IMG/VR virus record: IMGVR_UViG_2737471821_000004
Source: a virus
Taxonomy: Duplodnaviria; Heunggongvirae; Uroviricota; Caudoviricetes
Strand: one strand, 5' to 3'
DNA: 27,699 nucleotides
The notes under the pieces were generated by a model. That model was not told the DNA's origin. It searched no databases and was given only the letters and a program-made list of their open reading frames with translations. This document shows, piece after piece, positions 22,177 to 23,754 of the stretch (within the stretch, counting starts at the first letter, position 1; every line of letters starts with the position of its first letter). The position numbers and the translations under genes are program-made.

Positions 22177-23754
22177 ATGTCACAGACAGCCATCACACTG
22201 GCGTTTGAAAACTGGAAAGCACAGCAGGGCGCAACGGGTGAACCGGTACTACTGGACGAATTTGTTTTTGCCAGTGTGCCGGATTTAAACCCGGATACAC
22301 CTGTTGACCGCAATGAAGCGTTGCCCCCGACAGCACAGATTGTTCACCGGCAATCTGTTACCCGCACCGGTGTGGTGAATGAAAACGGGGTGGTCTATTC
22401 CGTAGTGCTGGGCGCAGATGTGGGAGATTTCAGTTTTAACTGGATCGGTCTGCTCAATAAGGCAAGCGGTACGCTGGCAATGATTGTCCATGCACCATCA
22501 CAGCAGAAACTGAAAACAAAAGAAGGGCAACAGGGGAACGTGCTGACCCGTTCGTTTCTGATGGAGTACAACGGCGCACAGACGGAAACCGGGATAAATA
22601 CGCCCGCTGAGACCTGGCAGATTGATTTCACCGCGCGTATGGCCGGAATGGATGAGCGCCAGCGCCTTGAAAATATGGATATCTATGGTGCGGCTGCGTT
22701 TTTTGGTAACGGGTATCTGGTAGCCAAAACCGGCAATCAGTTTTTTGTCACGAAAGGCACGGGTTATGTGGCTGGACTTCGTGCGTCACTGGCTGCGAAT
22801 CAGAATATTACGGTGACGACAAAGCCGGTAAAAGTCTGGCTGGATGTGTGCTGGACAGGGACGCTGACCAGTGTCTGGAATGTGCAGAGCAAAATCACGG
22901 TGGCTGCAAATCTTGCTGATTACGTTCAGAACGGGTGTCAGCATTATGTGTTTGCGGTGGCCAGCATTGATGTGGATGGCAACATCACGGATCTACGGCC
23001 AAAAGGTAGCCTGGGAGAACAGCAGGCCAGCAGCGATTTTTTGCGTAAGGAGGCAAACCTTGCTGATGTTAACGACAAAGCGAAAGCCAGAAAAAGTCTG
23101 GAACTGGGTGAACTGGCGGTTTTAAGTCGTAGTGATGTTCTGCCGGTTGGTGTGCCGCTTCCGTGGTCAACGAATATCCCGCCTGCAGGGTGGGCAATTA
23201 TGCAGGGACAATCTTTTGATAAGGTTGCATATCCTTTACTGGCCATCGCGTATCCGTCGGGTGTTATTCCTGACATGCGCCGCCGGACAATCAAAGGGAA
23301 ACCAGACGGCCGCGAAGTTTTGTCCTATGAAGATGATGGCAATAAATCCCACTCACACACAGCCAGTGCATCCAGTACCGATTTGGGGACGAAATCAACA
23401 TCCTCATTTGATTACGGTACTAAAACGGCGAGCACATTTGACTATGGCACGAAAACGACAAATACAACGGGGGCGCATGCACATACGCTGCCTGTACTTA
23501 ATGAAGAAAAAGGTGATGGAAACAACGCTGCGGGGGCTACGGGGTTTACGGTTGGAACCGCAACAACATCGTCTACTGGGGCACATGCCCATACGGTTGG
23601 CATTGGCGCACATAATCACACCGTAGGTATTGGCGCTCACTCTCATACCGTAGCCATTGGCGCACACAGTCACACCATTACCATCGCCGCGTCGGGCAAC
23701 GCAGAAACGACCGTTAAGAATATTGCATTTAACTACATAGTGAGACTCGCATAA
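22177..23754 (+). CDS. Tail fibre protein (525 aa) with His-rich repeat C-terminal tip
   Basis: Strong RBS AAGGAGG; N-terminus [34 protein letters not shown] resembles the conserved baseplate-attachment domain of myovirus tail fibres; C-terminus carries GAHxHT repeats; followed by a tail fibre assembly gene. Confidence 0.8.
23578..23685 (+). repeat. Four tandem 27-bp intragenic repeats encoding GAH(A/N/S)HT(V/I)(G/A/T)I
   Basis: GGGGCACATGCCCATACGGTTGGCATT / GGCGCACATAATCACACCGTAGGTATT / GGCGCTCACTCTCATACCGTAGCCATT / GGCGCACACAGTCACACCATTACCATC; a fifth related copy (GAHAHTLPV) lies about 80 bp upstream. Confidence 0.8.

Follow-up and report, generated by a model that had tools for sequence, protein, structure and literature searches.

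The last 205 residues of the tail fibre encoded in the window (the whole 27,699-nt stretch of IMG/VR virus record IMGVR_UViG_2737471821_000004 that was analyzed) very probably form a receptor-binding module of the T4 gp37 and lambda Stf type, consisting of collar, needle and head, with a needle that is predicted to be trimeric and metal-holding (Table 1). In a phmmer search, fibre residues 321-525 matched the T4 gp37 tip (PDB 2XGF, chain residues 28-242) with an E-value of 3.3e-68; the alignment of the collar/knob domain, from aa 321, starts at residue 28 of this chain. A three-way MAFFT alignment yielded 64.5% identity to T4 gp37 over 186 aligned positions. The preliminary description of this DNA had named T4 gp37 as one example of phage proteins that coordinate iron by stacked HxH motifs; the likeness extends beyond analogy to direct homology, as indicated by the 2XGF match and by His residues that are invariant in a 40-sequence alignment. 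The tip of the window fibre is an uncharacterized member of a well-characterized family, for which a solved structure and mutational data are available in T4.

In T4 gp37, the D10 collar comprises residues 811-881 and 1010-1026, and the D11 needle comprises residues 882-1009; seven iron atoms are arranged along the needle, each held by His residues of three chains, and neither H929A nor H931A mutants form plaques (Islam et al., 2019; PMC6957217). Lambda Stf is built alike, with a collar, a needle of six antiparallel strands, and a binding domain at its distal end (PMC7291167), and the lambda and T4 parts are functionally interchangeable in the account that this article gives of Montag (1989). 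By homology to these proteins, each chain of the window fibre trimer would leave the collar, descend the needle as three D(L/Y)GTK units, form a small variable head at aa 437-467, return up the needle as four GAHxHTVxI units, and end in the collar. Each HxH layer would bring together six His residues from three chains, which would coordinate one metal ion on the three-fold axis; six colinear sites are predicted in this way (H392/394, H434/436, H470/472, H479/481, H488/490, and H497/499). The metal is predicted to be iron as in T4, with six ions per fibre that would hold the thin six-stranded needle together. Since an AlphaFold2 monomer model of the 205-aa module, based on the 40-sequence alignment, was poor (mean pLDDT 55.7, pTM 0.20), as expected for an intertwined, metal-bound trimer, the proposed trimer and metal geometry rest on homology.

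Table 1. Features of the tail fibre gene and of the adjoining chaperone gene; nucleotide positions refer to the window.
Feature	Fibre residues (or first residue)	Nucleotides	Strand	Remarks
Tail fibre gene		22177..23754	+	525 aa and stop codon; from ORF list
Collar/knob domain	321-391	23137..23349	+	Equivalent of T4 gp37 domain D10
First HxH along the chain, SHSHT	H392-S-H394	23350..23358	+	Collar/needle junction; aligned with T4 H883/H885
Three 10-aa D(L/Y)GTKxxxx(F/T) units	402-431	23380..23469	+	Predicted descending needle strand
Second HxH box, GAHAH	432-436	23470..23484	+	Predicted last descending-strand iron site; left border of variable cassette
GAHxHT unit 1, GAHAHTLPV	432	23470-23496	+	From translation
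Hypervariable tip (head) cassette	437-467	23485..23577	+	Position of T4 gp37 tip subdomain; predicted receptor-binding surface
Four tandem 9-aa / 27-nt GAHxHT(V/I)x(I) units	468-503	23578..23685	+	Predicted ascending needle strand with four predicted iron sites
GAHxHT unit 2, GAHAHTVGI	468	23578-23604	+	From translation
GAHxHT unit 3, GAHNHTVGI	477	23605-23631	+	From translation
GAHxHT unit 4, GAHSHTVAI	486	23632-23658	+	From translation
GAHxHT unit 5, GAHSHTITI	495	23659-23685	+	From translation
C-terminal segment	504-525	23686..23751	+	Returns to collar domain; last 14 residues identical to T4 gp37
Tail fibre assembly chaperone (Tfa) gene		23754..24341	+	195 aa; ATG overlaps fibre stop codon by 1 nt (TAATG)

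Fibre Type and Phage Context

Sequence comparisons place the window prophage as a P2-like E. coli prophage of Quadragintavirus type within the Peduoviridae. The fibre locus was 100% identical in prophages of seven complete E. coli genomes, where the gene is annotated as phage tail protein, and shared approximately 95% nucleotide identity with the Escherichia phages ESSI2_ev129, ev239, ev040, and ev015 (Peduoviridae, genus Quadragintavirus). The fibre was assigned to PHROG tail fibre families, and its residues 3-158 constitute a Phage_tail_fib N-terminal domain (PF12571, E = 4e-32). Upstream of the fibre gene lie a Baseplate_J gene (20348-21586; Pfam) and a Tail_P2_I gene (21573-22166), the latter a weak match of 20.4 bits against a cut-off of 20.6; by its N-terminal domain and its position after the baseplate J and I genes, the fibre is of the P2 gpH type (Peduoviridae). 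Within the C-terminal module, Pfam recognized a Collar domain at aa 325-372 (PF07484, E = 9e-10, 38.8 bits against a cut-off of 24). The phage tail fibre repeat family PF03335 (Phage_fiber) was matched by the protein as a whole (24.1 bits against a cut-off of 20, E = 3e-5), with the best stretch in the His-box region at aa 465-477 and no single stretch exceeding the cut-off alone.

The P2 proteins gpH and gpG share with the window fibre and its chaperone the family Peduoviridae, the PF12571 type of N-terminal domain, a collar domain, and the order of fibre gene followed by chaperone gene; yet the match of P2 gpH to the module ends after the first 61 aa, corresponding to the collar, and P2 gpH lacks the HxH needle. 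Lambda Stf has this module as well, in an identical stem class (first spacing 42, terminal spacings 9,9,9), and its tfa gene is located directly downstream, as in the window; in contrast to the window fibre, it has a 14/14 distal extension, eight HxH motifs and a longer tip (48 aa between boxes), its N-terminal shaft is unrelated to that of the window fibre, and lambda is a siphovirus whereas the window phage is contractile-tailed. T4 gp37 shares the collar, the descending DLGTK/FDYGTK units, the GxHxH boxes, the tandem 9-aa HxH units, and an identical C-terminal end of 14 residues. The T4 module belongs to a T-even fibre of 1026 aa and contains seven HxH motifs, whereas the window module is attached to a P2-type fibre of 525 aa and contains six; the window fibre lacks the distal 14-aa / 14-aa extension of T4 (H929/931 and H966/968), and it has, as in lambda Stf, one extra pair made up of a 10-aa stretch and IGAHNHTVG. 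The Mu fibre tip did not match the window fibre in the PDB sequence search. By tblastn, the module was detected in 628 phage genome records, which include T-even gp37, lambda-type Stf, phage 9g, Felixounaviruses, and Peduoviridae. The module as such is a case of textbook tail-fibre mosaicism, and matters little for discovery.

HxH Motifs and Predicted Metal Sites

Five GAHxHT units, the last four of them contiguous, 27 nt long and in frame, had been reported in the preliminary description, and these were seen in the translation at aa 432, 468, 477, 486, and 495; a sixth HxH motif at aa 392-394 had been missed in this inventory. The DNA repeats had been called perfect in register, which holds for their phase but not for their sequence: the 27-nt units are only 59-74% identical to each other in pairwise comparison, and the longest common exact run is 8 nt. 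Tandem Repeats Finder reported the HxH array with a period of 27, a score of 96 and 75% matches, and a repeat search of the array returned copy spacings of 27 and 27. Since 12 of the 15 His residues of the fibre are located inside HxH motifs, and since six or more HxH motifs were reached in none of 100,000 residue shuffles of the fibre, the HxH pattern cannot be attributed to chance. All 12 HxH His residues are invariant in the alignment of 40 homologous sequences (alignment A1, in which the first pair is H72/H74), and so is the Gly two residues ahead of the five GxHxH boxes between aa 432 and 499.

The HxH motifs of T4 gp37 are found at residues 883, 915, 929, 966, 980, 989, and 998. The tandem array of the window fibre aligns with the T4 motifs GDHSHSV, GAHTHTV, and GSHGHTI, plus one extra unit that is common to lambda Stf; for one of the seven iron-site pairs of T4, the window fibre has no equivalent. 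The alignment is ambiguous around H434, which was paired with T4 H929 by HMMER and with T4 H915 by MAFFT; the analysis of spacing classes (see below) favours the three-way alignment over the gap placement by HMMER.

The HxH site in T4 gp12 binds zinc, and in general different metals have been reported for related phage HxH proteins; this would be in keeping with a needle whose HxH sites hold zinc or another non-iron metal, or are empty, and in which the repeats contribute stability purely through beta-sheet packing. We consider such a needle improbable, as the 64.5% identity links the window fibre to a structure with iron at equivalent sites, and the invariance of the 12 His residues across homologues argues for a role as ligands. 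Six iron ions per fibre remain the preferred prediction.

Two Repeat Families and Possible Discrete Needle Lengths

Upstream of the HxH array, two copies of the heptapeptide FDYGTKT are present at aa 411 and 421 (nt 23407 and 23437). They had previously been recorded as a second repeat pair; the pair is indeed present, but it belongs to a set of three 10-aa units that occupies aa 402-431. These units change in number together with the 9-aa HxH units, and for this reason the FDYGTKT repeat is regarded as the structural partner of the HxH array. The correlation emerged from a set of 247 homologues, to which a search against 1.84 billion cluster representatives, with 1,556 hits at E<=0.001, contributed 150 representatives. 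Across this set, the 9-aa HxH unit number ranges from 3 to 7 and differs between subfamilies, and each added HxH unit on the ascending strand is paired with 10 more residues, or one D(L/Y)GTK unit, on the descending strand; likewise, a 14-aa extension on one strand is always matched by 14 aa on the other.

When the proteins were sorted by the spacings between successive HxH motifs, a handful of symmetric classes resulted, the commonest of which was [42,tip,9,9,9] with 135 of the 247 members, including the window fibre (42, 36, 9, 9, 9). The class [32,tip,9,9] has 43 members, [52,tip,9,9,9,9] has eight, and [62,...] and [72,...] have two each. Among the extended needles, [32,14,tip,14,9,9] has 47 members, including T4 gp37, [42,14,tip,14,9,9,9] has six, including lambda Stf, [41,14,tip,14,9,9,9] has two, and [32,12,tip,12,9,9] has a single member. 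The last HxH motif lies at position -29 from the C-terminus in all homologues listed except P0154 (-28). The paired-unit rule is kept in 246 of the 247 proteins. The sole exception, homologue P0046, is a natural variant with a His-to-Tyr change in one box (GAYNHT) and unchanged spacing, in which one complete metal site may be missing.

As a structural rule, the strict pairing of the two repeat families is tidy and to be expected from the hairpin architecture; a limited literature search did not find it stated. For engineering, it translates into the rule that needle length is to be changed by adding or removing units on both strands together. Needle length would be set by these paired units, one 10-aa descending unit for each 9-aa HxH ascending unit, and paired changes in number would be best explained by cassette exchange in different repeat registers, with selection presumably keeping the matched products. 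More tentatively, and with somewhat less confidence than doubt on our part, the needle may be viewed as a quantised molecular ruler, which changes only by gain or loss of paired 10-aa/9-aa units and by the optional 14/14 distal extension. Such needles would come in discrete lengths with 5 to 9 metal sites; the paired changes could arise from cassette recombination in different registers, if only matched products fold, and length might be adjusted to how deep the surface layer of the host is.

Tandem 27-nt repeats could also be taken as a hotspot of slippage or unequal recombination, with frequent changes in unit number, fibre length or host range, and the preliminary description had called the region prone to copy-number change. 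The units are tandem and in frame, and their number does range from 3 to 7, but this range separates subfamilies, and the number changes only in pair with the D(L/Y)GTK units. Among near relatives, the number is fixed: the array has four units in all four related fibres that were directly compared, and the six-HxH layout (2+4) is found in 113 of 120 close homologues. Twenty-five E. coli genomes match nt 23340-23760, and in 24 of them the HxH array aligns without gaps as a single block (177 or 421 nt); the match in H98, the remaining genome, is in two pieces. On short time scales, proneness to copy-number change was not borne out by this ungapped array, and DNA units that share 59-74% identity and exact runs of no more than 8 nt have diverged too far for slippage. 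A change on one strand only was never seen, with matched strands in 246 of 247 proteins. The slippage hotspot is for these reasons considered highly improbable. Near-identical DNA units and copy-number polymorphism among close relatives, the marks of a slippage-type contingency locus, are both missing from the array, and this designation was rejected.

A Variable Head Cassette Between His Boxes

The preliminary description had placed the tip of the fibre in the HxH tandem array. By homology, this array corresponds to the needle strand that ascends through the stem, and the end of the chain lies back at the collar; the predicted receptor-binding tip is instead the loop of aa 437-467, flanked by the fifth-from-last and the fourth-from-last HxH motifs. 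The tip is assigned to this loop between H436 and H470 because amino acid differences to relatives cluster there, because DNA identity drops there, and because the tips of homologues are hypervariable. In comparison to the window fibre, 29 of the 45 amino acid differences in phage ev129 and 28 of the 63 in prophage 18.25PC fall within aa 426-475. DNA identity to ev129 amounts to 27-60% at the cassette vs. 97-100% in the flanks, decreasing from 97% to 60% and below at the second HxH box (nt ~23470-23484). Taking ev129 and 18.25PC together, identity changes from 87-97% to 27-60% at ~nt 23470-23484 and recovers at ~nt 23600, with His boxes on both sides. Across the 247 homologues, which contain 162 distinct tip sequences, median identity to the window fibre is 26% for the tip vs. 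75% for the HxH array. The predicted host-range determinant of this prophage family is accordingly positioned at aa 437-467, not in the HxH array. Host specificity would reside in this head cassette, which phages would swap among themselves along borders at the His boxes on either side.

Binding to OmpC or LPS has been reported for T4 gp37 and lambda Stf (PMC6957217, PMC7291167). The window cassette is unrelated to the T4 tip cassette, and because of this difference OmpC and LPS are not readily transferable as receptors to the window fibre.

The coincidence of sequence breaks and His boxes admits a further reading, in which the GxHxH boxes serve mainly as DNA-level joints for the homologous swapping of cassettes and their metal role is secondary. 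Recombination at His boxes is reportedly the subject of an older literature, with Tetart in 1998 and Sandmeier in 1994 as its authors. The drop and recovery of identity at the His boxes in ev129 and 18.25PC, the combination of invariant boxes with hypervariable tips, and the recurrence of the same C-terminal module across fibre shafts and phage families that are not related to each other are all consistent with DNA joints, and this reading is compatible with the proposed module; as the main function of the boxes it is nevertheless rather unlikely. The His codons vary (CAT/CAC, with differing third positions) while the His residues stay fixed, and since the residues are invariant but the codons are not, selection acts on the protein and not on the DNA. 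The phenotypes of T4 H929A and H931A demonstrate a requirement at the protein level (PMC6957217). Moreover, the borders of the cassette are also structural domain borders, which would be enough alone to produce the same pattern. A metal-holding needle with an exchangeable head remains the preferred interpretation of the module.

A second, independent mosaic patch was observed in the collar region when the window was compared to E. coli EH09-18-41, with which it shares the tip cassette. Here, the 30-nt blocks with start positions at nt 23047-23257 (aa ~291-361) are only 57-90% identical in DNA, with the lowest values of 57-73% at ~nt 23167-23256; the remaining fibre gene is mostly 90-100% identical, with dips to 83% at ~nt 23377-23436 and 23467-23496.

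An invertible host-range switch of the Mu G or P1 C type was also considered and rejected. The ORF list for positions 20000-27699 contains no long opposite-strand fibre ORF downstream of the fibre gene, and a related phage record annotates only same-strand genes in that region.

The Tfa Chaperone and Neighbouring Genes

Translation of tfa is coupled to that of the fibre gene, and the tfa product is predicted to be the folding chaperone that the fibre would require. The protein was identified as a tail fibre assembly protein by Pfam (Caudo_TAP, E = 2e-35) and by PHROG_105 (tail fiber assembly, E = 6e-83), and it aligns over its full length with lambda Tfa. Its C-terminal part (aa 72-191) matched gpU of the Mu gpS-gpU pair (PDB 5YVQ; chain 5YVQ_B, E = 4e-8). 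The window phage differs in this respect from T4, which uses the chaperones gp38 and gp57A in place of a lambda-type Tfa. The joint between the end of the fibre gene and the start of tfa looks like a widely shared mosaic junction. The TfaE region of Erwinia phage RF1 shows 93% identity to positions 23705-23881, which hold ~50 nt from the end of the fibre gene and ~128 nt from the start of tfa; no other part of the query matches this phage.

Two conserved phage ORFs, 24295-25056 and 25028-25573, are located between tfa and the spike gene; they correspond to PHROG_1677 and PHROG_1398, both of unknown function, and have no Pfam match. The spike/hub gene (ORF 25576-27276) closes the tail module, downstream of the fibre genes, a position that differs from the P2 gene order. 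Its product contains Gp5_C repeats and a Phage_base_V domain (Pfam) and was assigned to PHROG_2258 (baseplate protein). Near its C-terminus it has a single HxH motif (aa 533-535, nt 27172-27180, QQCASHSHPSVG), which resembles the iron-binding apex motif of P2 gpV, Mu gp45, and Sf14 gp47. In these spikes, one HxH motif per chain creates an octahedral iron site on the three-fold axis (PMC11821841); they form an unrelated family with one site in the spike apex, in contrast to the stacked needle array of the window fibre. Finally, an ORF that runs off the end of the window (27307-27699) has a signal-peptide-like N-terminus (MKNFIILAVGAAVSFNVFA) and belongs to PHROG_13843, of unknown function; it may represent cargo, a moron gene at the prophage end.
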